Shown piece after piece: positions 10,079 through 48,761 of a stretch of DNA of 64,000 nt. This DNA comes from Candidatus Pacebacteria bacterium RIFOXYA1_FULL_38_18 (GTDB lineage Bacteria; Patescibacteriota; Microgenomatia; UBA1400; PJMF01), in assembly GCA_001787405.1 (NCBI GenBank), contig MFWV01000007.1, forward strand, positions 15,694-79,693, given 5' to 3'. Position 1 is the first letter of the stretch. Every line of letters starts with the position of its first letter. Both the position numbers and the translations under genes were made by a program. The notes beneath the pieces are model-generated. The model was given only the letters and a program-made list of their open reading frames with translations. It had not been told where the DNA came from and ran no database searches.

Positions 10079-10142
10079 GAATTTATTTTCTTTTAAATCT
10101 CTCTTAAAACCTCGCGTGCAAGAATACTGGCACAGTCTTATA

Positions 10143-10812: not shown

Positions 10813-11580
10813 ATGCGCCGAAGAGAAAAATTTGTTTTTGCTGCTACTTTGCTGAGTTTGGGATTATTATTAATCCAATATTTTGGAGTGGAGTGGCGCT
10901 ATTGGGCTTTTGCTATTTTTATGATTACTACTTATTTTGTTTCAGCTTGGGCGTTGACTGATGATTTACAACCCCATGAATGGTTGACTATTTTGCCTTT
11001 CCCTGCCTTGTACGCTGGATCGGTTTCTTTATTTTACTTTTTGCTACCTAGTGCATTTTTGACTAGAGTTTTAATTTTAGCTTTATTTGGTGTTGGAATG
11101 TATGGCTTATTTCTTACCAGTAACATTTTTTCAGTTGCCAAAGGTCGTACCATTCAGTTATTGTATGCTGCCCATGCTGTAGGCTTGTTTTTCACCCTTT
11201 TTACCTCCATGCTGTTCACCAATGCTATTTTTTCCTTAAAATTGCCTTTTTACACCAATGGTGTCCTAGTTGGTCTAATTCATTTTCCTCTGATTCTAAT
11301 GAGTTTGTGGTCGATTAAACTGGAACCATTAATTAGTCGTGCAATCTGGAGTTTTTCTTTATTGCTGACCTTGTTATTGATTGAACTAGTAATTTTGTTT
11401 TCACTTTTACCTTTGCCGGCTTGGCATGTGGCCTTATTTGTAATGGGCTTTTTGTATATTGGTTTGGGCGTGTTACAGAGTCAAATTAGAGAGCGACTAT
11501 TTCAAAATACAGCCAATGAGTATTCATTGGTGGCCATTTTCTTGGGCTTAATCTTCTTGATTTTATTTCCGTGGAAATAA
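10813..11580 (+). CDS. hypothetical polytopic membrane protein
   Basis: About 7 hydrophobic helices over 255 aa; no family recognised. Confidence 0.4.
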   Translation: MRRREKFVFAATLLSLGLLLIQYFGVEWRYWAFAIFMITTYFVSAWALTDDLQPHEWLTILPFPALYAGSVSLFYFLLPSAFLTRVLILALFGVGMYGLFLTSNIFSVAKGRTIQLLYAAHAVGLFFTLFTSMLFTNAIFSLKLPFYTNGVLVGLIHFPLILMSLWSIKLEPLISRAIWSFSLLLTLLLIELVILFSLLPLPAWHVALFVMGFLYIGLGVLQSQIRERLFQNTANEYSLVAIFLGLIFLILFPWK

Positions 11581-11651
11581 AAATACTCGTTTTCAATGAG
11601 GCTTCAAGATTTTTGGGGCCTGATCAGTGTTGCTTGAGTTTTAATCACTGT

Positions 11652-11680
11652 TTTTTTAGCCTGGTATCCAGGCTAAAAAA
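11652..11680. repeat. 29-bp perfect palindrome TTTTTTAGCCTGG-TAT-CCAGGCTAAAAAA
   Basis: Read directly. Thirteen-bp arms flank a 3-bp centre. It shares the AGCCTGG/CCAGGCT core with the palindrome at 12066. Confidence 0.6.
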
Positions 11681-12065
11681 TAAGAGTGGAGGAGGCCAGA
11701 AGTAGCCAGATTAGGGTGATTAGGTTTGGTTTCGGAATTGGTTAGTCTTGAGTGTCCTTCAAGAGACTTGGTAGTTAAAAGAAATCAATTAAAAACATTT
11801 TTCAAGATTTAAAAATTAAATTAAGCTTAAAAATAGGGAAGTGTGAAGCGAAAAAAAGGGTGCCCATCCAGATAGGGAAGAGAATAATGATATAGTTTGA
11901 TACATTGTGGAAAACTCTAATAAATTATAGGATTTCTCGTGAAAATATTATAGGATCGTTATTCTAGCGTACCAGGCTAAATGATATAGTTTTATGCAGT
12001 TTCTTGGTTGTATATACCCAGTATTTGCAAGAATAATTTAAGGTCCATAGCCTGGAAGAGAGTTG

Positions 12066-12094
12066 GCATGTCCAGGCTTATAGCCTGGACATGC
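12066..12094. repeat. 29-bp perfect palindrome GCATGTCCAGGCT-TAT-AGCCTGGACATGC; candidate recombinase (dif-like) or regulator site
   Basis: Read directly. A partial third copy (ATAGCCTGGA) lies at 12048-12057. It sits about 1.1 kb upstream of the Xer-like recombinase gene. Confidence 0.5.
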
Positions 12095-13146
12095 CTGAAT
12101 ATTAGTCATCAGTCGATTGGAGAAGAAGAACACAAAAAACCCGAATGACCGTTTTTGGCCGGTTTGAAAGGATCGCTATCTGGCACGAGAGAAGTATCTT
12201 TAAAGGAAAACTAATAAAGATAAATATTTGTACAAAAAGAGAGTGGCAGGGTACTCTCACTCCCTTTTGCTTTATCCTCAATCTCTCTAACTGACTATGT
12301 CGCACAATATAACTTTTACGACGTAATGTCAGGCTAAAACTGAAAAGCGCAAATTTCACTATTTTAATATTCTTTGACTATTATCTTGATTTATCCGATC
12401 TTTACTCTGAATTGGTTTCTTATTGCTTCTCTTCTTCTTATTAATTTATTAATTAATGATGGAGCTTGGCAAATTTCTTGAGGTTTATATCTGGTTTTAC
12501 TTGATTTATCTTTGAGTGAATATTCTGACAAAATCTTTACCAATTGAGCAATTTATCAGTGGCTTATTGAGGGGTTCAAGTTTCAAAATCAGCTTTAGAA
12601 ACCCAGCCAAACCATGTGAACGTTTTTGAAACAAAAGATTGATATATCAATCTAATTTTCTTCAATGATAGATAGATCGTTTTTAATAAAAAAAGCCGTT
12701 TTTGAGCTATTAGAACGGCTCAAAAAACTTTGGTCGGTAAGGATTGAGTTGGCGATCAGATCGACAATCAGCTGAAGTCAAATTTGACAAATTTATTGTA
12801 AGTAAAATTTGGATGAGTTTCGATAAAACTTAATTAGCAAAACATTGATTGATTGTTAATTAATCGTTTTTTGAAAAACAGTTTGAATTTTTATTAAGCG
12901 AAAGATTCTTTGAATTAAATAATTTACAATCAGACTCTCGGCTTTTATTAAAAAGTCTCTTGAGAAAGCCAAAGTCCGTTTTTACTTAAAAGTTACGATC
13001 GATCAAACTTGGGAATCTCAGATGCATAAAGGAATTAAAATTGATTTATCAGGACTTTTAAGCGATTTTGGCTTTTAGCAGTAATTTAACTGCTCTGACA
13101 ATGACTTATAGTATCTCAACTAATTTTCAAGCAATTTTTCTCGACT

Positions 13147-13175
13147 TTGACTATACTCAGTTTTTCTTTTACGAT
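13147..13175 (+). promoter_or_regulatory. candidate sigma70 promoter TTGACT, 17-bp spacer, TACGAT, for the Xer-like gene
   Basis: Hexamers and spacing read directly. A GAGAGGAG RBS precedes the ATG at 13187. Confidence 0.35.
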
Positions 13176-13186
13176 GAGAGGAGCCT

Positions 13187-14125
13187 ATGGCAATTACTAC
13201 TTCTCCATCCCCTGCTTTGATCGAATTCCTCGAGTCACTCGAAGTAGAGCGCAATCTCTCCCCTCTTACTTTGCGCAACTATCATCATTATTTACGTCGT
13301 TTTATTGATTGGTTTACCAATCAGGGCCATCATGACCTCAAGGAGCTCGACAGAGATATCTTGAGGAAATATCGAGTTTTTCTCTCTAGATATTCAGATG
13401 AACAAGGCAGAACTTTATCCAAAAAAACCCAGAGTTATCATATTATTTCTCTGCGCTCTTGGTTTAAGTGGTTGACCAAGAATGATGCTGAAGTCTTAAA
13501 CTCCGAAAAAATAGAGTTGCCCAAGGCAGAATCAACACCGATGAAGTTTGTTTCTGCCGAGAAGATTCAGCGCCTACTCAATGAACCTGATCTGAGCAAA
13601 CCCAAGGGCTTGCGAGATCGGGCTATTTTGGAAGTGCTTTTTTCGACCGGCTTGCGGGTTAGTGAATTAGTTGGCCTCAATCAAGATCAAATCGACCTTA
13701 ATCGACGAGAATTTGGAGTGATTGGTAAAGGTCGCCGGCCCAGAGTGGTATTTTTGAGCGATGAAGCGGCCGATTGGCTGACTCGCTGGCTCAACACGCG
13801 TCAAGATAATTGGCGGCCAGTCTTCACTCGCTTTTCTGGGAAGAAACCAGACCTTTTGGCTGATGGTGAGGAGATGCGTTTGACGACTAGAAGCGTGCAG
13901 AGATTGGTAGATAGATATAGTCGGAGAGCTCGCCTGCCCATCAAGCTATCACCTCACGGCATTCGTCATAGTTTTGCTACGGATTTACTGAGTAATGGTG
14001 CTGGCTTGAGAGATGTTCAAGAAATGTTGGGTCATAAAAACATTGCCACTACTCAGATTTACACCCACGTTACTCAGCCCCAACTGCGCAAAGTTCATGA
14101 GAAGCATCACTCAAAGACACATTAG
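13187..14125 (+). CDS. XerC/XerD-family tyrosine site-specific recombinase
   Basis: N-terminal core-binding domain (LSPLTLRNYHHYLRRF). The catalytic region has RDRAILEVLFSTGLRVSE, HGIRHSFAT and LGHKNIATTQIYTHV (R...H-x-x-R...Y). Confidence 0.8.
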   Translation: MAITTSPSPALIEFLESLEVERNLSPLTLRNYHHYLRRFIDWFTNQGHHDLKELDRDILRKYRVFLSRYSDEQGRTLSKKTQSYHIISLRSWFKWLTKNDAEVLNSEKIELPKAESTPMKFVSAEKIQRLLNEPDLSKPKGLRDRAILEVLFSTGLRVSELVGLNQDQIDLNRREFGVIGKGRRPRVVFLSDEAADWLTRWLNTRQDNWRPVFTRFSGKKPDLLADGEEMRLTTRSVQRLVDRYSRRARLPIKLSPHGIRHSFATDLLSNGAGLRDVQEMLGHKNIATTQIYTHVTQPQLRKVHEKHHSKTH

Positions 14126-14546
14126 TTACTATTGGTTTATATTTAAAGATATAAAAATAGTGAAAGATAACTTATAATAGCTTTCTATTTTGATAAAGTG
14201 AGATTGATTAACTTATTTTTCTTCTTAAATACATCAGAAAGTATCAAAATTGGAGTAAGATCCCTGTTTAACTGACAAATTACTTACAGGATCTTAGCAG
14301 TATCTATCAATCTCTGCTAAAAACTAATTTTGAGTTTAAAGATTGTTGTATCAATCTAAATTTATACTATTTTTATAAAGCTCTTTGTCAAAAACTTTAT
14401 AATTTTCTTATTTTTCCGGTTGTTAACAATATATTAGAACAGATCAAAGCCAATCAATTTTGATTGAATAAAGTTTGCAAAATTTGCTTGGAGACGATGA
14501 TATTTGCTAACCAAAATGATACAATCGGCAACGTTAAACTCAAAAT

Positions 14547-30806: not shown

Positions 30807-32153
30807 TTAGGGAGTTGAAAACCGCGGTTGAATTTCACGAATATTAAAATGAGCAGATTTCATCAAAGTGGGAATGTTGACCATAAAATCAGGGCGAAAA
30901 ACAAAAGTTTCAGTAGGAGTAGTATTATTGACGCTATTATCTTCAAGTTTGGCAAAACTTCTTTGTAAATTAATTCCGGTCCATCCCACAAAAGTACCAG
31001 CAGCAATGAATTTTTTGTCTGGATTGGTCAAATAACTTTGTACCCAGATAGTTCCATCAGTAATAAAAACACCTTCTATCAAGGGAGTATCTGGGGAAGC
31101 TGAATCAGTATTTACATTTGCGTAACCTACATGAGGAGTAATAATTACGTCTCCTTGGCTAATAAAAGCCAGAAAGCCTCTACCCCCCCTCTCCACCGTA
31201 ATCAGCCGATTTTCTGCTCCTGGCTGATCGTCAATGATCAAATTTCCTTCCAAGAAGACAATAATTTGTTCATTGGCAGTTAAGTGCCACTGATTGCCCT
31301 CTCCGATAGTCAGATCACCACTTTGATGGTAAATAGCTGGATAATTTGCTACGGTTGGTTTCTGAGAGCTGGGCAAAGGCATTGCTTTTGCAGACATTTT
31401 TTTATAAAAATAGGCATAATTTTCCGTAGGCAAACTTATACCAAGTGCAAAACCTTGATCAGAATTAGAGCGCTGATCTGGATCATGAATAAAGTTTCCA
31501 CCGGTTGCGTGAGTATAAATAATTCCGTCACTACTAAAAGCAAAACCGGGACTATCCAGAGTTGTTTGATTATCATCACCGATCAATGCCGGCAAACAGC
31601 CAGCAGTAGTATTGCAGTATCCAGGCGTTCCAGCCAAACTTACGGGAATTAAACTCTGGATATTATATTTGGAAAAAACATTGCCGCCTCGTACTTGCCA
31701 CCAGGCGTTATTTTGTACATTAGCTCGTTTGACAAAGACATTGATCGGTCCAGGAGTGGCTGGATTTTGATTGGTAAAAACACATTGATACGCATCCAAA
31801 GGATTGGCGTTACAGGCACACTGCCAAGCATTGGTTGGATCCGGTGGAGGATAAGGCAGACTAATAGTGACTGAATAATCAGGATAGTTGCCTTCTACTT
31901 GAACAGAATAAGTATTATCAATTACATTACCAGAGTTTTCTTCTCCAGGCCTACTGGCTTTGATTTTGAAACCCACTCCGCTCACTTGTGTAGTAGTCAG
32001 GCCAGCGCAGCGATTATCAGTACTCTCAAAACCCACAGGTGTGGCATTTTCATCAACAAAGATTCCCCCACCAAAGCCAGCAGCACTGACTATTTGACTT
32101 GAACGAATCAACACGAGAAAAAAACTCAAACCAATCAAAATGATTTTTCGCAT
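30807..32153 (-). CDS. secreted protein of unknown function, paralog A; start set at MRKIILIGLSFF..., a signal peptide
   Basis: Signal peptide present. It shares an approximately 400-aa C-terminal domain with the upstream 678-aa protein (for example NAWQCACNANP..., GAENRLITVERGGRGFLAFISQGD, KKFIAAGTFVGWTG, IFRPDFMVN). Confidence 0.5.
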   Translation of the reverse strand: MRKIILIGLSFFLVLIRSSQIVSAAGFGGGIFVDENATPVGFESTDNRCAGLTTTQVSGVGFKIKASRPGEENSGNVIDNTYSVQVEGNYPDYSVTISLPYPPPDPTNAWQCACNANPLDAYQCVFTNQNPATPGPINVFVKRANVQNNAWWQVRGGNVFSKYNIQSLIPVSLAGTPGYCNTTAGCLPALIGDDNQTTLDSPGFAFSSDGIIYTHATGGNFIHDPDQRSNSDQGFALGISLPTENYAYFYKKMSAKAMPLPSSQKPTVANYPAIYHQSGDLTIGEGNQWHLTANEQIIVFLEGNLIIDDQPGAENRLITVERGGRGFLAFISQGDVIITPHVGYANVNTDSASPDTPLIEGVFITDGTIWVQSYLTNPDKKFIAAGTFVGWTGINLQRSFAKLEDNSVNNTTPTETFVFRPDFMVNIPTLMKSAHFNIREIQPRFSTP

Positions 32154-32182
32154 TAATATCAGTGTACAAGAAATCTTCTTTG

Positions 32183-34219
32183 CTAGAAACTCGGTTCGAT
32201 TTCTCGCCAACTCATTTGAGCAGACTTAATTTGTCTGGGAGCATTGATGATAAAGTCAGGGCGGAAAATAAAGACTTCGGTGGCAGCAGCGCTATTTAGT
32301 TCTGGACTCACTCCGTCATCAAAATTCCTCTGTAAATCTACTCCGTCCCATCCCACAAAAGTACCAGCCCCAATAAATTTTTTATCAGTGACTCCTGTTT
32401 GACCAGCAATGGTTATCAAACCATCAGCTACAAACACTCCCTCTACATTGGCCACATTGGCAGTAGCGGCATTGGTATAAATATTGTCATAACCTACATT
32501 GGCAGAAATAGTGAGATCTCCACGGACAACAAACATCAAGAAACCATCTCCTCCAGAAGCTACGGTAGTGAGTCTATTCTCTCCTCCTACCGTATCATCG
32601 ATAGTCAAATTACCATCTACAAAAACAATGATTTGTTCTGTATTGTTTAAATTCCAGGAATTGGTCTGATCAATATTTAAGTTTCCGGAATAAAGATAAA
32701 CTCCCAAATTGTCACTGCCGACAATGGGTTTTTGAAGATTGGTAAGAGTTTGAGCTGAAGCACCAAATTTATTGTAGAAATAGTCGTAGTTTTCCAAAGG
32801 TACTCTTACTCCCAAAGCCTGACCTTGAACAGCACTGCTTCGACCATCTACCTCATGGATATAGACTCCAGAACTGTCACTGGTCACGATTGCACCAGTA
32901 TTTACCAAGGGAAAACCAGCACTATCTACTGTGCCTGATGGATCACGCAACATCAAGGCAGGATTGCAAGTAGGCAGACTACAAGTAGCAAAAGGAATCT
33001 TGGATTGAATATTGTCTGAGGCCCAAGAACTGCCACCCAAAGTTTGGAACCAGGCAGAAGTTATTTCATTGCGTTTGACAAAGAAATTGATGAAACCCTG
33101 ATTTGGTTGTTGATTGGTATACAGACAGCGGAAGGGATTGGAAGGATCGGCATTACAAGCACACATCCAGGCATTGTTTGGATCTGCTGGTGGAAACTCT
33201 AGTTCCAGGGCAACGGTGTAATCACTATTACTGGTATTGGCGACAATAGAATAGGCAGTGTTGTTGATGATTTTGGATTGATTTTCTCCAGTCCGATTGA
33301 GAGTCAATAGACCATTAGTAATTGAAGCGGCAACTGCGGTGCTACCGGTACACAGATTATCTGTTCCGCCAATGCCTGAAGCAATGGCATTTTCATCCAT
33401 GTAAAAATTACCTCTAAATCTTTGCACTGGTGTAGGCGTAGGGGTGAGCGTGGGCACTATTGGTGCGGTTACGTATAAAATCTTATCGTCGTAGCACATC
33501 GACACCCCAGACGCATATACCCTAGCCCGCAAAGTTACGCTTCCGGAAGTATCTCCACTAGTAGCTACAGATTTCCACCCATCTGCTCTTACAGTATCAT
33601 CCAAAGGATCTAGTGTTAATGTGCCAACCCCAGCTATTTTTCGAAAAGTTACTTTGGTGGCAATCATATTGTTTTCATTTACCACCGCTATCAAGCTTTT
33701 TGTATCATTTTCTCCCGCCACAAAATCTCCTGTAAGCGCATTTAGTGTTACCGTACAACTAGGCGTGGTAGGTGTAGGCGTGGGTGTAGGCGTAGGTGTA
33801 GGCGTGGGTGTAGGCGTTCCCCCTCCTCCAGTGGGTGTGGGGGTGGGACAAGGAATAATCTGAAAGAGAGTGCTATCTGTCGTACACTCACAGTAGAGAA
33901 AGCCCGCATCATCACACTGATCAGCACACCAGGTATAAGTCCCCGCACAATTATTTCCTCCAAGAGGACAATTCTCACAGGAGATAGCACACTGGTAATC
34001 GCTGTTGCAGTAGGTGGTTTGACCCTGACAATCAGTAGCGCAACCCGTTCCAGCTGGAGCATAATAATCACACCCATATTCTCCTGGTGTAGTACAAATG
34101 TTTGGATCAGTAATAGTTGGATACACAGTTTGGGCAAGAGCCTGCTGGACAGAAGTAAACAGGAAAACAATAGCCAAGATCACTAGACTGAGTTTGGACA
34201 AAAATTTCATCCCACTCAT
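32183..34219 (-). CDS. secreted protein of unknown function, paralog B, with an N-terminal Cys-rich module and a Pro-Thr linker
   Basis: Signal peptide, then a Cys-rich approximately 100-aa module and a (PT)n linker, then a C-terminal domain paralogous to 30807..32153. Confidence 0.5.
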   Translation of the reverse strand: MSGMKFLSKLSLVILAIVFLFTSVQQALAQTVYPTITDPNICTTPGEYGCDYYAPAGTGCATDCQGQTTYCNSDYQCAISCENCPLGGNNCAGTYTWCADQCDDAGFLYCECTTDSTLFQIIPCPTPTPTGGGGTPTPTPTPTPTPTPTPTTPSCTVTLNALTGDFVAGENDTKSLIAVVNENNMIATKVTFRKIAGVGTLTLDPLDDTVRADGWKSVATSGDTSGSVTLRARVYASGVSMCYDDKILYVTAPIVPTLTPTPTPVQRFRGNFYMDENAIASGIGGTDNLCTGSTAVAASITNGLLTLNRTGENQSKIINNTAYSIVANTSNSDYTVALELEFPPADPNNAWMCACNADPSNPFRCLYTNQQPNQGFINFFVKRNEITSAWFQTLGGSSWASDNIQSKIPFATCSLPTCNPALMLRDPSGTVDSAGFPLVNTGAIVTSDSSGVYIHEVDGRSSAVQGQALGVRVPLENYDYFYNKFGASAQTLTNLQKPIVGSDNLGVYLYSGNLNIDQTNSWNLNNTEQIIVFVDGNLTIDDTVGGENRLTTVASGGDGFLMFVVRGDLTISANVGYDNIYTNAATANVANVEGVFVADGLITIAGQTGVTDKKFIGAGTFVGWDGVDLQRNFDDGVSPELNSAAATEVFIFRPDFIINAPRQIKSAQMSWREIEPSF

Positions 34220-34259
34220 TTAATCAGGTTAAAAGAGCAACTTCAAGCGTGATTGCTAG

Positions 34260-36098
34260 TTATTGCCAATAATCCATTGGAAATTGAGGTGTTGCTGCCA
34301 TTAATATTTCGTATTGAAGAGAGTTGATATCTTCTGGAGAGGCTGGCCCCACAAAACCCAATCCTCCAAGCTCTTTAATTTCAGGAAACTTGGTATTGAA
34401 TAGATCTACTAGATCGGGATTGCTAGCCAAAGGTCCCCCTTCTGAAGCATGATAAAGCTCGTCTGGGGCACTGGCTTCGGAAACGAAATCAGGACCGATG
34501 AACTGACCAGAAACTGAGCCGGTAAAATTACCATAGGCAACATAGGGCATTGGTCTGGCGGTCATAGAAAGACGATCTTCAGAATTATTAGTTTGACCTA
34601 GAAAGACCCCATAAACTAAATTCCTGGGAGTTTGATTGCCTGGTCTATAATCTTCTTCCCATGGCCACTCTGGTCCAAAAATATAGTGGAAGAGAACCGA
34701 GGTTTTACCATCGGGCATAAGCATTTGTTGGGTGCCAATGAGAGCCTCTTTGCCCTCTGGGGTAGTTGTTCTGCTAAAGTTTGTCCAGCGACGGGGATCA
34801 GTTTCATGGGTAATGATGTCTTTCATTGCAGTCCAAGCGTCGTCGTTTGTGCCATGAGTAATGCCGACGAGTTGAATAGTATAATCATATTGAATACCTG
34901 TACTCAAAACCCACCAAAGATCATCTAGCACCAGTGTCCCCTCGGGGAAGGGTTGGGCGACGAGAGCCTCAGAAATGAGTAGTCGGCCAGATTCGATGTC
35001 TGCCAAGTCGATTTCTGGGTAGTTTTCAGTTTCTCTGGCGTCAGTGAATATTTCCAGAGGAGCGACCCATTGACCGGTTCTTTCCAGGAAGAAGTAGATG
35101 ACTTCTCCCTCGGTGTTTTTGATGGTCAGGACATGTTCTACACCAGCCACGATGGTGTCTCTGGCTTCAAAAGCTTCCTGGGGGAAACTGAGTGTTTCTT
35201 GGTCTGCGGTGGTGATGGTGATGGTGGCTGCTTCGGTAGAGCGAATTACTACTTTGTTTTCTCGGTTGATGAGTTGGGTGCCGTCTTCTGTTGATTGAAT
35301 GGTGTAGCCTGCTTCTCTGAGAGCTGATTGTTGACTGGTGAAAGACTCTGGAGTGGCCGAGATTACTTCGGTGGGTTTGACGGTGGGAGTGGGAATCTGA
35401 TTAATGTCATCTGGATCTTCGTCATCAGGATTGGAAATATCAGGATCTTCATCTATGACAACGGCTGTGGGGTAGTTGTTATTGATTTCCGGTGGTGAAA
35501 CTTTACAAGAAACAGCAATAAGGGCCAAAAGAGCGGTAGCAGACAGACCAATTACTTTTTTGGTTTGATTACTACTATCATAATTTCTATTCTCCCAAAT
35601 CAATTGTAGTGCCTGTTTTTCTGCGTCTTTGGCTTTGAACTTGGCCACTGCTTTTTTGGTTTTATTGGCAAACCCTTTTTCCGGTAGATTATTTACTATC
35701 AAATGAAATCTAGCAGCTGTTTCTAGAGCTAAAGTTAACTGGGCGGATAAAGTCAATTCTTGAGGTTTGATTTCTTCAAATTTACTATCAGAAGCAATGC
35801 CTCGTATCAATCCTCTTCTGCTAACACGAAGAGTAATAGGATTTTTTTGGTTCGGTTCTGGAATTTTCTCAATCAGAGTGGCTAATTGTTCCACAGAAAG
35901 CCGATCAAGGTTGTCTATTTCAGCGGGAAAGACAAGCTTGCCGGCTTCGATCAGAGCTTTTACATATTTAGCAACAACTTCTTCTACCTGTTTTTTACCT
36001 TGGAAATCTTTAAGTTCAAAGTGATGCTGAACTTCAATAGGATCTGATTCGGCTTCAGGCGATTTAGGTGCGATAGAGTTTAACTCTTTTTCTGCCAT
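34260..36098 (-). CDS. bitopic membrane protein of unknown function
   Basis: Roughly 180-aa cytoplasmic N-terminal domain, a single TM helix (VIGLSATALLALIAV), an acidic DEDPD-rich linker and a roughly 380-aa extracytoplasmic domain. No family recognised. Confidence 0.45.
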   Translation of the reverse strand: MAEKELNSIAPKSPEAESDPIEVQHHFELKDFQGKKQVEEVVAKYVKALIEAGKLVFPAEIDNLDRLSVEQLATLIEKIPEPNQKNPITLRVSRRGLIRGIASDSKFEEIKPQELTLSAQLTLALETAARFHLIVNNLPEKGFANKTKKAVAKFKAKDAEKQALQLIWENRNYDSSNQTKKVIGLSATALLALIAVSCKVSPPEINNNYPTAVVIDEDPDISNPDDEDPDDINQIPTPTVKPTEVISATPESFTSQQSALREAGYTIQSTEDGTQLINRENKVVIRSTEAATITITTADQETLSFPQEAFEARDTIVAGVEHVLTIKNTEGEVIYFFLERTGQWVAPLEIFTDARETENYPEIDLADIESGRLLISEALVAQPFPEGTLVLDDLWWVLSTGIQYDYTIQLVGITHGTNDDAWTAMKDIITHETDPRRWTNFSRTTTPEGKEALIGTQQMLMPDGKTSVLFHYIFGPEWPWEEDYRPGNQTPRNLVYGVFLGQTNNSEDRLSMTARPMPYVAYGNFTGSVSGQFIGPDFVSEASAPDELYHASEGGPLASNPDLVDLFNTKFPEIKELGGLGFVGPASPEDINSLQYEILMAATPQFPMDYWQ

Positions 36099-48240: not shown

Positions 48241-48327
48241 TTTTCTTTCTTTTTAAATAAAATATTATTACTTTTTTGGCGCCGATTTAGCGCGATTCTA
48301 TAGTCTATTTCCATAATTACCTTTCTT

Positions 48328-48690
48328 TTTTAATACTAAAAAACGCCCCGCACATACACCTGAATGGTGTACATGCAAGGGCGTTAAGATCCAACGCGGT
48401 ACCACCTTGCTTTATTTGCCTTTTTCTACAAAAAATCCTGCGAACGCAGGACTCGAAAAAAAGGAAAACCTCATTTCGAGCACTCTGTTTCTAGTGTGTC
48501 ATGCTCTTTCGCTATTATGGGCGATCCCATTCCTTGCTACTTTCCAAGATGAAATTTGGATTTGGTGTGGACTGCTCAGGAAGGTATTTCATTCTGTTAA
48601 AGCTAGTTCAGCTTTCACCAACCGCTGAATCTCTGTTTTCCGCTTTAGGAATTACTAAGTTTCCGTCACTGCATTTCTGTTAACTTGTTC
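48328..48690 (-). promoter_or_regulatory. T-box riboswitch leader with a Met (AUG) specifier, antiterminator and intrinsic terminator
   Basis: All on the minus strand. The T-box sequence AAGGUGGUACCGCG is the reverse complement of plus 48395..48410. The antiterminator has A1 AAGG/CCUU, the 7-nt bulge UGGUACC and A2 GCGUU/AACGC. The terminator is AACGCCCUUGCAUGUACACC-auuc-AGGUGUAUGUGCGGGGCGUU plus UUUUUU. Stem I has an AGAGA bulge, a distal loop GGUUGGUGAAAG and a specifier loop ...AGA-AUG-A.... A Stem III-like hairpin lies at 48436..48451. Confidence 0.7.
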
Positions 48691-48695
48691 GTGAA

Positions 48696-48723
48696 ATTAT
48701 ACACATGGTTTTTTAGTTTGCAA
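48696..48723 (-). promoter_or_regulatory. strong sigma70 promoter TTGCAA, 16-bp spacer, TATAAT (TG-extended) driving the T-box leader
   Basis: Read directly on the minus strand. A TG sits immediately 5' of the -10 hexamer. Confidence 0.6.
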
Positions 48724-48761
48724 GTTTTAATTTGAAAAGCAAAAAACTGGTACAATAATGT

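Follow-up and report, generated by a model that had tools for sequence, protein, structure and literature searches.

A long non-coding gap between a DUF5656 gene and xer

We analyzed a 64,000-nucleotide stretch of the genome of Candidatus Pacebacteria bacterium RIFOXYA1_FULL_38_18 (contig MFWV01000007.1 of assembly GCA_001787405.1), which we will call the window. Between the stop codon of a gene for a DUF5656-like membrane protein (at 11580) and the ATG of a gene for a tyrosine recombinase (xer, at 13187), the window has a gap of 1606 bp (11581-13186). This gap, a 28-bp palindromic element that lies within it (the core), and their relationship to the recombinase are the subject of this report.

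A first-pass annotation of the window, made from the sequence alone, had described the gap as about 1.6 kb of very AT-rich DNA without open reading frames (ORFs), and this description holds up. The G+C content of the gap is 33.1%, versus 39.5% for the whole window. The longest ORF in the gap, on the minus strand at 12102-12359, would encode just 85 amino acids from a GTG start; it had been considered spurious, and a Pfam search with it gave no match. Over 11400-13400, each of the six reading frames contains 40-48 stop codons. Spacers elsewhere in the window are mostly under 150 bp, as had also been stated, and by the ORF list the next largest are 521, 421, 321, and 227 bp. At three times the length of any other spacer of the window, the gap is an outlier. 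The same 1606 bp (100% identical) are found in other assemblies. The source genome is that of a groundwater member of the Patescibacteria.

The two next-longest spacers are at 48241-48761 (521 bp) and at 14126-14546 (421 bp, from xer to a gene for tRNA-Ala). The latter contains several promoter-like sites, on both strands.

The gap is conserved across a class-level clade

We found 653 homologs of the DUF5656 protein. We fetched the contigs of four of these homologs and then those of 80 species representatives from GTDB. We also scanned metagenome contigs with a degenerate pattern for the core, which gave at least 120 further stretches with one match each. A long ORF-poor gap between the DUF5656 gene and xer was present in about 65 of the GTDB species and in at least 120 metagenome contigs, that is, in all of the sampled contigs that reach far enough. 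In the roughly 65 loci with xer downstream, the gap spans 950-2800 bp, and its longest stop-free stretch is usually under 120 amino acids.

The gap is conserved in sequence as well as in length. In a relative whose DUF5656 protein is 92% identical, the gap aligns at about 75% identity over 1.1 kb. Among all of the loci, the coverage of blastn alignments has one sharp island, at 12296-12340, which is present in almost every locus. Weaker conserved islands lie at 11820-11940, 12640-12720, and 13040-13120.

Conservation of the arrangement extends to distant relatives. Almost every locus that extends far enough has the DUF5656 gene on the strand of the core and upstream of it. In the metagenome stretches, the DUF5656 homologs are only 29-65% identical and the Xer proteins are 45-78% identical; despite this divergence, the order DUF5656-core-xer and the common strand are kept. 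Where the DUF5656 proteins are only 29-40% identical, the core is still found between the DUF5656 gene and xer. Altogether, the gap, the gene order, and the positions of the motifs (described below) are kept in at least 190 genomes, with the flanking proteins diverged to 30-60% identity. The first-pass annotation had suggested comparing syntenic regions of related genomes to see if the region is conserved or is an insertion. It is conserved: the gap and the neighboring genes are syntenic across a class-level clade.

Two distant, GC-rich loci (L103 and L158) have a different arrangement. There, the core lies 24-43 bp before xer and directly after a gene for an HflX-like GTPase, and the DUF5656 gene, the motif array, and any other non-coding DNA are absent. 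Because the core and xer occur as a pair in these loci without the rest of the region, the pair is probably older than the rest.

The core has the anatomy of a dif-like site

The core, which is the most conserved element of the region, was overlooked in the first-pass annotation. Two inverted arms of 11 bp enclose an asymmetric spacer of 6 bp (an 11-6-11 architecture), and the consensus across the loci is (T)ATGTCGCACAA-TAT[A/T]AC-TTTT[A/G]CGAC[A/G]T(AA). Each locus has one copy, always on the strand of the flanking genes (about 190 loci, with up to 15 kb examined for each), and there is one copy in the 64-kb window. The median distance from the DUF5656 gene to the core is 706 bp (interquartile range 663-750), and the median distance from the core to xer is 919 bp.

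We built a position matrix from 186 distinct sites. The dyad axis falls between positions 12 and 13, and the arms span -3 to 9 and 16 to 28. The arms are fixed, and the variation is concentrated at spacer positions 11-13. The spacer, T-A-(TA or AT)-A-C, is asymmetric in these sites, and the central dinucleotide stays TA or AT (85% are self-complementary, versus 48% expected). The core sites of tyrosine recombinases of the Xer type would be 28-31 bp long with two inverted 11-bp arms around a center of 6-8 bp, and the core has each of these features. Judged by this layout, the core has the anatomy of a dif-like core site for a tyrosine recombinase. It had no matches in viral contigs.

We considered and rejected several other explanations for the core. 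An extended hairpin around it was rejected as a general feature: swapping the right flanks between loci barely shifts the folding energy (41/74 were lower, p = 0.045). A nick site for HUH or rolling-circle replication was suggested by AATATTAC, which resembles the nonanucleotide of geminiviruses. However, TATTAC is present in only 19/186 sites, and there is no Rep gene nearby. The core of the window can also be read as a nine-codon ORF at 12297-12326 (ATG TCG CAC AAT ATA ACT TTT ACG ACG TAA, or MSHNITFTT), but the ATG and the TAA belong to the palindrome and neither the start nor the stop is conserved in all loci. Finally, we looked for hybrid attachment sites on either side of inserted genes. 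We found only copies of the left arm at the promoter of xer, and no hybrid sites.

Xer and its promoter

The Xer protein matches Phage_integrase (Pfam) with 143 bits. The models for XerC and XerD score nearly alike (253.6 and 251.4 bits), and both scores are below the equivalog cut-offs. In an alignment to the structure of XerD from Escherichia coli (1a0p), the catalytic R, K, HxxR, H, and Y are all in place, in the motifs GLRVSEL, GKG.., HxxRH, LGH, and IYTH. By these marks, Xer is an intact, XerD-like member of the Xer group. The models for XerS (128 bits, cut-off 267) and for XerA (207, cut-off 220) score below their cut-offs. The models for integron integrases are far below theirs (108.6 versus 265 and 53.9 versus 435), and no repeated, attC-like hairpin sites flank the genes that are sometimes found between the core and xer. 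These two results speak against an integron (IntI/attI).

In many relatives, the promoter of xer contains a second copy of the left arm of the core. GTCG[C/T]ACAAT is found at most 120 nt upstream of the start of xer in 46/132 loci; the background is 0.003 per 120 nt. As a rule, this second left arm either is directly next to a TTGACA -35 hexamer or overlaps the -10 of the xer promoter. Of the indirect evidence that Xer binds to the arms, this is the best; the linkage of site and gene, which is kept down to a distance of 24 bp, is further indirect support. Autoregulation by a site-specific recombinase would be expected to look like this, with an arm of the core serving as the operator for xer. 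For the window, we infer that the conserved block CTCTGACAATGACTTATAGTATC is likely the xer promoter, with a degenerate operator that resembles the left arm.

Closer to xer, CTTTTACGAT (13166-13175), which lies 12 nt before the ribosome-binding site, shares 9/10 positions with the core's right arm (CTTTTACGAC). At the same place, the relatives have TTT[A/G]CG[A/G]T (alignment A4).

Some relatives carry additional genes in the region. In L055, L075, L086, L088, L146, L154, and other loci, genes occupying 2-5 kb separate the core from the xer promoter. These encode glycosyltransferase-like membrane proteins, a lysyl-oxidase-like protein, and proteins of unknown function. The point between the core and the xer promoter tolerates or attracts insertions. 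Separately, many relatives have an extra gene of 170-250 amino acids directly 3' of the DUF5656 gene (such as L004:7770-8282 and L006:7819-8340), with sub-threshold similarity to DprA (DNA_processg_A, E = 1e-4). The window lacks this gene and has about 70 nt in its place.

Conserved motifs on both sides of the core

The DNA around the core contains a set of motifs (Table 1), several of which we identified by k-mer enrichment in the gaps of the GTDB loci, at set distances from the core. These motifs are 20-200 times denser in the gaps than in the flanks. We will refer to those of the upstream array as D, R1, R2, and R3; the polarity of D and R3 is fixed, and R1 and R2 flip.

Table 1. Genes and conserved or repeated elements at the locus (coordinates are those of the window).
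Feature	Position	Strand	Notes
DUF5656-like membrane-protein gene	10813-11580	+	255 amino acids; weak Pfam match to DUF5656
Perfect palindrome TTTTTTAGCCTGG-TAT-CCAGGCTAAAAAA	11652-11680		13-bp arms; conserved in close relatives (alignment A2)
G/A-rich boxes (AATAGGGAAGTG ... CCAGATAGGGAAGAG) before the repeat array	11830-11884	+	Conserved in A2 and in the 73-sequence alignment
R3 repeat TGATATAGTTTGATA, copy 1	11888-11902	+	About -412 from the core in 65/66 gaps
DnaA-box-type motif (D); TGTGGAAAA on the + strand, TTTTCCACA on the - strand	11906-11914	-	Conserved
TTATAGGA - CGTGAAAA - TTATAGGA	11925-11955		Inverted R1 (CCTATAA) and R2 (TTTTCACG) units
CCAGGCTAAA, then R3 copy 2 (TGATATAGTTTTATG)	11972-11996	+	
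TGCAAGAATAA box	12026-12036	+	Conserved; k-mer enrichment, alignments
Perfect 14-3-14 palindrome GGCATGTCCAGGCT-TAT-AGCCTGGACATGCC	12065-12095		Lineage-specific
AAAAAACCCGAAT box	12133-12146	+	AACCCGAA at -190 in 65/66 gaps (interquartile range 21)
Hairpin GAGAGTGGCAGGGTACTCTC with flanking A and T runs	12239-12258		Terminator-like
dif-like core, ATGTCGCACAA-TATAAC-TTTTACGACGT	12297-12324	+	28-mer; dyad symmetry over 12295-12326
TCAGGCTAAAA box directly 3' of the core	12329-12339	+	AGGCTAAA in 42/106 distant loci
T-rich, pyrimidine-rich tract	12349-12520	+	With TTGATTTATC copies at 12386 and 12501
Palindrome GATTGATATATCAATC	12637-12652		Conserved block in A4 and in the 73-sequence alignment
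Short hairpin (AATGAT..ATCGTT), then A-run and hairpin GCCGTT..AACGGC	12664-12728		Both hairpins conserved; the second is terminator-like
Third TTGATTTATC copy	13041-13050	+	Degenerate TTGATATATCA site
Conserved block CTCTGACAATGACTTATAGTATC	13093-13116	+	Invariant in alignment A4; likely -10 TATAGT
XerC/XerD-like tyrosine recombinase gene (xer)	13187-14125	+	Pfam Phage_integrase and SAM-like N domain

The most constant motif of the array is D, or TGTGGA[A/T]AACT, at about -392 from the core. Its first nine positions, TGTGGA[A/T]AA, are found exactly once in 62/66 gaps and at least once in 65/66, in a fixed place and orientation. By sequence, D is the DnaA-box consensus (TTATCCACA or TTTTCCACA). 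Among 95 distant loci, 57 have the perfect box TGTGGATAA once, at a density of 0.857/kb versus 0.011/kb in the flanks, and all 139 of the DnaA-box copies have the same orientation. The first-pass annotation had pointed to two weak 9-mers that resemble DnaA boxes. Of these, TGTGGAAAA (at 11906) corresponds to D and is kept in 65/66 gaps, but TTATCCTCA (at 12273) is part of a non-conserved stretch.

R3 is found in 1-3 copies per locus, as tandem copies or as inverted pairs, with 203 copies in one orientation and 7 in the opposite one. Within copy 1 of the window, TGATATAGT (11888-11896) also reads as an extended -10. R1 and R2 are more variable: their orientation flips and their copy number varies between clades. 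Their inverted forms (TTATAGGAC for R1 and CGTGAAAA for R2) are enriched in the gaps, and the window has both R1 and R2 in inverted form, downstream of D. Distant lineages can have as many as 4 tandem copies of R1, with a period of 14 nt, and in some lineages the tandem CCTATAAT units (14-nt period) adjoin DnaA-type boxes. By our own comparison, R2, or TTTTCAC[A/G], agrees at 7-8 of 9 positions with TTWTNCACA, the relaxed consensus for DnaA boxes, and 0-2 of these units are found per locus within 120 nt of the DnaA box. The order of the array in distant lineages is four copies of CCTATAAT (14-nt period), two of TTTTCAC[A/G], TGTGGATAA, about 19 nt, and TGATATAGTT.

Nearer to the core, the motif AAAACCCGAAT is enriched at -190 in 65/66 gaps, and distant lineages have a related palindrome, CCCGAAAA, downstream of the core. 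The first-pass annotation had also noted two palindromes with CCAGGCT cores. Both are indeed perfect (Table 1), and across the relatives, CCAGGCT/AGCCTGG is enriched 11-fold in the gap versus the flanks. The first of these palindromes resembles a terminator that would act in both directions, serving the gene upstream. The halves of the second are about 30 nt apart or absent in relatives. For the hairpin at 12239-12258, the sequence of the stem differs among relatives and the pairing is kept (alignment A2, judged by eye).

The composition of the + strand switches abruptly around the core, from purine-rich to T-rich (74 and 120 loci). The purine-rich part covers about 600 nt upstream, where the GC skew reaches +0.49 (mean of 74 loci). 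From +50 to +200, T makes up 44-51% (means over 74 and 120 loci) and A+T is 70%. We considered whether the T-rich tract encodes a small hydrophobic protein and rejected this: the stop-free stretches are not homologous, mismatches lack a three-base periodicity, and indels shift the frame. Repeated motifs that had been reported near 12387, 12494, and 13038 correspond to the copies of TTGATTTATC at 12386, 12501, and 13041, which are degenerate versions of the conserved palindrome TTGATATATCAA at 12639. In addition, AAAAAGCCGTTTTT is conserved at about +293 from the core. At the downstream terminator-like hairpin, relatives have a stem AGCC..GGCT flanked by an A-run and a T-run.

Beyond the gap, a second copy of the conserved box TGCAAGAATA is found at 10117-10126, in the divergent promoter region of a TPR gene and yebC. 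Farther away, three consecutive large ORFs on the minus strand (467, 678, and 612 amino acids; 30807-36098) had no Pfam match at E ≤ 1e-5.

A probable Xer/dif-type module

The region is most probably a cis-acting DNA locus, neither decayed spacer nor a large RNA gene. We think that its function is probably in chromosome maintenance: it would be the site of the adjacent Xer, in a module of the Xer/dif type with a single recombinase and with accessory or regulatory DNA.

We propose that two Xer protomers would bind the two inverted 11-13-bp arms of the core, and that the asymmetric spacer TATAAC would set the polarity of the site. Recombination between the two copies of the core on a chromosome dimer would yield monomers. 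In the many relatives with an extra left arm in the xer promoter, Xer may repress its own gene. Under this proposal, the approximately 700 bp upstream of the core and 400 bp downstream are not spacer. They would be sets of binding sites, either accessory or regulatory, made up of one DnaA box of the high-affinity type, the TTTTCAC[G/A] units, the CCTATAAT and TGATATAGTT repeats, the TGATA palindromes, and the T-rich tract. Like the accessory sequences of cer and psi, these flanking motifs could give the recombination synapse its shape, or they could couple the locus to the replication cycle via DnaA.

Several observations weigh against this proposal. A chromosomal dif site is expected at the switch in GC skew. 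However, in 44/49 GTDB loci and in 13/15 metagenome loci, the GC skew at third codon positions (GC3 skew) is positive on both sides of the locus. It is also about +0.15 on both sides in locus L027, which is CP011212, after separating the effects of gene strand and chromosome strand, and L027 has the array and the core intact. We did not find any product of recombination, such as an inserted element with hybrid sites, and the genes that lie between the core and xer in some relatives look ordinary. We know of no role for a single strong DnaA box at dif sites. Also, the positions of the core that were fixed in our search pattern inflate its apparent invariance among the metagenome loci. The core is equally invariant among the GTDB loci, which were collected via the protein and without the pattern.

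GC skew and the origin or terminus of replication

Because the skew has the same sign on both flanks, there is no switch of replichores at the locus. Neither the window nor CP011212 has the change in the sign of the GC skew at the site that is expected for dif at a terminus, and the locus does not have the minimum in cumulative GC skew that is expected for an origin.

Within the window, the GC3 skew of the + strand is positive (around +0.1) for genes of both strands over almost all of the 64 kb. It is 0.116 for the + genes on the left, 0.085 for the + genes on the right, and 0.115 for the - genes on the right; the genes amount to 24 kb on the + strand and 33 kb on the - strand. As the skew is positive for genes of both strands, it reflects an asymmetry between the chromosome strands that does not switch within the window. 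This asymmetry fits the strand disparity that was reported for related Microgenomatia (PMC7143001).

The genes around the locus converge on it: they are mostly on the + strand to the left and mostly on the - strand to the right. We also looked for words whose polarity flips around the core, like the FtsK-orienting polar sequences (KOPS). The strongest flipping words were the Shine-Dalgarno-like AGGGGAG and codon repeats, which follow the orientation of the genes, so this test was confounded and we rejected the candidates. Across about 190 loci, AGGGGAG(A) is strongly biased by strand in accord with gene orientation (156:4 on the left flank and 12:132 on the right) and is probably the clade's Shine-Dalgarno sequence.

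Kadnikov et al. (2020, PMC7143001) reported that in complete genomes from the order UBA1400 (Microgenomatia), the cumulative GC skew falls monotonically around the chromosome. They proposed that the origin and terminus are adjacent or that replication is of the unidirectional theta type. We did not find any literature that follows up on this anomaly. In genomes with monotonic skew, the flanks of every locus have the same sign, so the skew test is blind there. The first-pass annotation had held that a whole-genome skew that places the origin and terminus elsewhere would count against its explanations for the gap. Given the monotonic skew of these relatives, that argument is weakened. However, CP011212, which was also placed in UBA1400, is reported to have an ordinary V-shaped skew (PMC7143001), and the local skew in this genome speaks against an origin or a terminus at the locus in the family PJMF01.

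An origin-like region and a dif or terminus region had both been listed as candidate explanations. For the latter, a dif-like site that is linked to xer is strongly supported, but there is no skew switch to mark a terminus. An origin is not established: the DnaA-box-like motifs and AT-rich repeats are present, but there is neither a skew minimum nor a dnaA gene nearby. (We found no dnaA gene in the window or in about 200 loci by tblastn with a B. subtilis DnaA sequence, which is a weak negative.) The coordinates of complete genomes give no hint of the position of the origin, as the start points of these records are evidently arbitrary.

The two candidates could both be correct if the locus is a junction of origin and terminus. 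The motif array would be the chromosomal origin, about 400 bp from the dif-like site and xer; replication would proceed in one direction, and the origin and the terminus would coincide. The parts of the origin would be the DnaA box, the DnaA-box-like units, the tandem AT-rich CCTATAAT 14-mers as the unwinding element, and the T-rich tract. This would match the proposals made for the order UBA1400 (PMC7143001), and the relatives with this locus carry Pacebacteria or Paceibacterota names and include CP011212 from that order. In L156 and L171, the layout of four CCTATAAT units (14-nt period), two TTTTCAC[G/A], and TGTGGATAA recalls the 13-mers and DnaA boxes of oriC. The polarity of the DnaA box is strictly fixed, the purine/pyrimidine asymmetry switches sharply at the core, and gyrB and gyrA are close by. 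Such a junction also predicts skew of the same sign on both flanks, which is observed and is often strong (GC3 skew of 0.2-0.5), but because this holds for any locus in the interior of a replichore, it is not positive evidence. Furthermore, each locus has a single DnaA box of the consensus type, dnaA is missing from the loci as described above, loci with the core right beside xer (L103 and L158) lack the array, and the array is intact in the family PJMF01, including CP011212 with its reported V-shaped skew and its local skew of about +0.15 on both sides. We consider a junction of origin and terminus to be unlikely. If it were correct, it would explain the monotonic skew of UBA1400 (PMC7143001), which has so far not been tied to any locus, and it would be the first type of bacterial chromosome with a coincident origin and terminus.

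The region lacks signals of a structured RNA

A large structured RNA was another of the original candidates, and a search of all of Rfam had been suggested. With Rfam 15 at the gathering thresholds, two tRNAs were the only matches in the window, and a permissive scan of 11300-13400 (E ≤ 10) gave chance-level matches only. ARAGORN did not find a transfer-messenger RNA. In an alignment of 68 sequences from -205 to +45, RNAalifold predicts only the inverted repeat of the core. The z-scores for folding of the segment from -330 to -30 average -1.0 on both strands, as compared to +0.1 and +0.3 for coding controls. The window's own sequence has z-scores of -3.6 and -3.9, and these are due to the lineage-specific 14-bp palindrome. 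Resemblances to RNase P (GAGGAAAAC.AGGCT, GTGAAAA, and AAAACCCGAAT) were rejected, as none of the RNase P models gave a match even at E ≤ 10. The region has neither coding signals nor those of RNA structure, and the idea of a large structured RNA is not supported.

One or more non-coding RNAs, such as small transcripts, could be encoded instead. A transcript under the control of DnaA, about 350 nt long, might for instance run from TGATATAGT, as an extended -10, to the hairpin at 12239-12258, and a transcript from the minus strand might end at the hairpin at 12695-12719. The conserved blocks would then be elements of promoters or of RNAs. TGATATAGT fits TGnTATAAT at 8/9 positions, and the DnaA box is found either shortly downstream or some 19 nt upstream of this sequence, positions that are typical of promoters repressed by DnaA. 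The terminator-like hairpins at about -50 and about +370 have stems that differ among relatives, the distance from R3 to the core is kept, and the single-sequence z-scores are strong as noted above. But sequence conservation is poor between R3 and the core, the average z-score is modest and is equal on the two strands, and neither Rfam nor the alignment gave a family or a consensus structure beyond the core. Also, TGATATAG is no more common in the flanks than expected by chance, so it is not a general promoter motif. Above all, the number, order, and orientation of the motifs change between lineages, which is typical of sites in DNA that are bound by proteins and does not fit a single RNA fold. 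We think that a non-coding RNA is quite unlikely to be the explanation.

The last alternative, which is very improbable, is that the region is a decayed spacer or the remnant of a mobile element beside its integrase, without a function of its own: it is AT-rich and ORF-free, it adjoins a tyrosine recombinase with a tRNA gene 420 bp past xer, and some relatives have extra genes in the gap, but we saw no transposase or phage remnants at the region, the core lacks matches in viral contigs, and the conservation of the gap, its islands, and its motif positions across syntenic loci with diverged proteins, including about 75% identity to the relative with a 92%-identical DUF5656 protein, is not what decay would leave.

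Comparison to known Xer systems

The closest precedent for the proposed module is XerS/difSL from Streptococci and Lactococci. Le Bourgeois et al. (2007, PMC1914069) recognized the difSL-xerS module in a comparison of terminus regions, by the same comparative logic as ours. In both systems, the gene for a single tyrosine recombinase is physically linked to its own site, which lies upstream; the site has two imperfect inverted repeats around a center of 6-8 bp; and the pair of site and gene is kept as a module across a whole clade. There are also many differences. The recombinase described here is XerC/D-like instead of XerS-like, and the sequence of its site is unrelated to difSL. Our site is usually separated from xer by 0.5-1 kb, and distant lineages are the only ones in which the two are adjacent. 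The 1-2 kb of non-coding DNA around the site is conserved, rich in motifs, and includes a DnaA box, and the site is linked to a DUF5656 gene. Finally, difSL is at the shift in GC skew and our site is not.

XerH/difH from Helicobacter and Campylobacter and XerA/dif from archaea also combine one recombinase with a near-palindromic site. The inner arms of difH end with ..GAAAA-N6-TTTTC.., and the core has ..CAA-N6-TTT.., which is likewise A-rich and then T-rich. Otherwise, the core is not known to be similar in sequence to these sites. The XerA model does not reach its cut-off for our Xer. In archaea, one protein can suffice for an Xer/dif system (PMC2958812).

A different precedent comes from plasmids. 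In cer (from ColE1) and psi (from pSC101), the Xer core is flanked on one side, at a fixed distance, by accessory DNA that binds proteins. These accessory regions are about 180 bp and bind ArgR and PepA or ArcA and PepA, and they make recombination independent of FtsK and of position relative to the terminus. The locus described here also has a long one-sided flank at a fixed distance from its core. By analogy, an arrangement like that of cer or psi would explain both the conserved flank and the position away from a terminus. Unlike those sites, the flank here is 400-700 bp and contains different motifs, including a DnaA box, and the locus is chromosomal and is conserved at the level of a class.

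In some respects, the region resembles oriC. It has a consensus DnaA box, TGTGGATAA, along with weaker TTTTCAC[A/G] units; it has tandem AT-rich short repeats and a T-rich tract within a long non-coding region; and gyrB and gyrA are nearby. Unlike oriC, each locus has one strong box, there is no skew minimum, the neighbors are not dnaA or dnaN, and a recombinase core lies in the middle.

Implications for the Patescibacteria

Patescibacteria (the candidate phyla radiation) account for a large share of bacterial diversity, and the maintenance of their chromosomes has hardly been studied. We did not find any paper on a dif site in this group. Relative to the known systems, what is new here is an XerC/D-like recombinase, an unrelated site, and the arrays of motifs with a T-rich tract, as well as a plausible link to the question of how these genomes replicate.

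The locus provides a precise candidate site of 28 bp and a recombinase for a whole class. It is evidence for such a site in the interior of a replichore or in genomes without a switch in skew, and the site is tied to a conserved set of motifs with a DnaA box and repeats. The locus can also serve as a landmark for orienting and checking metagenome-assembled genomes, and it might be a safe site for integration if genetic tools for these organisms are developed. For the biology of the Microgenomatia, it is a concrete candidate at which the one-directional GC skew of their genomes could be investigated.

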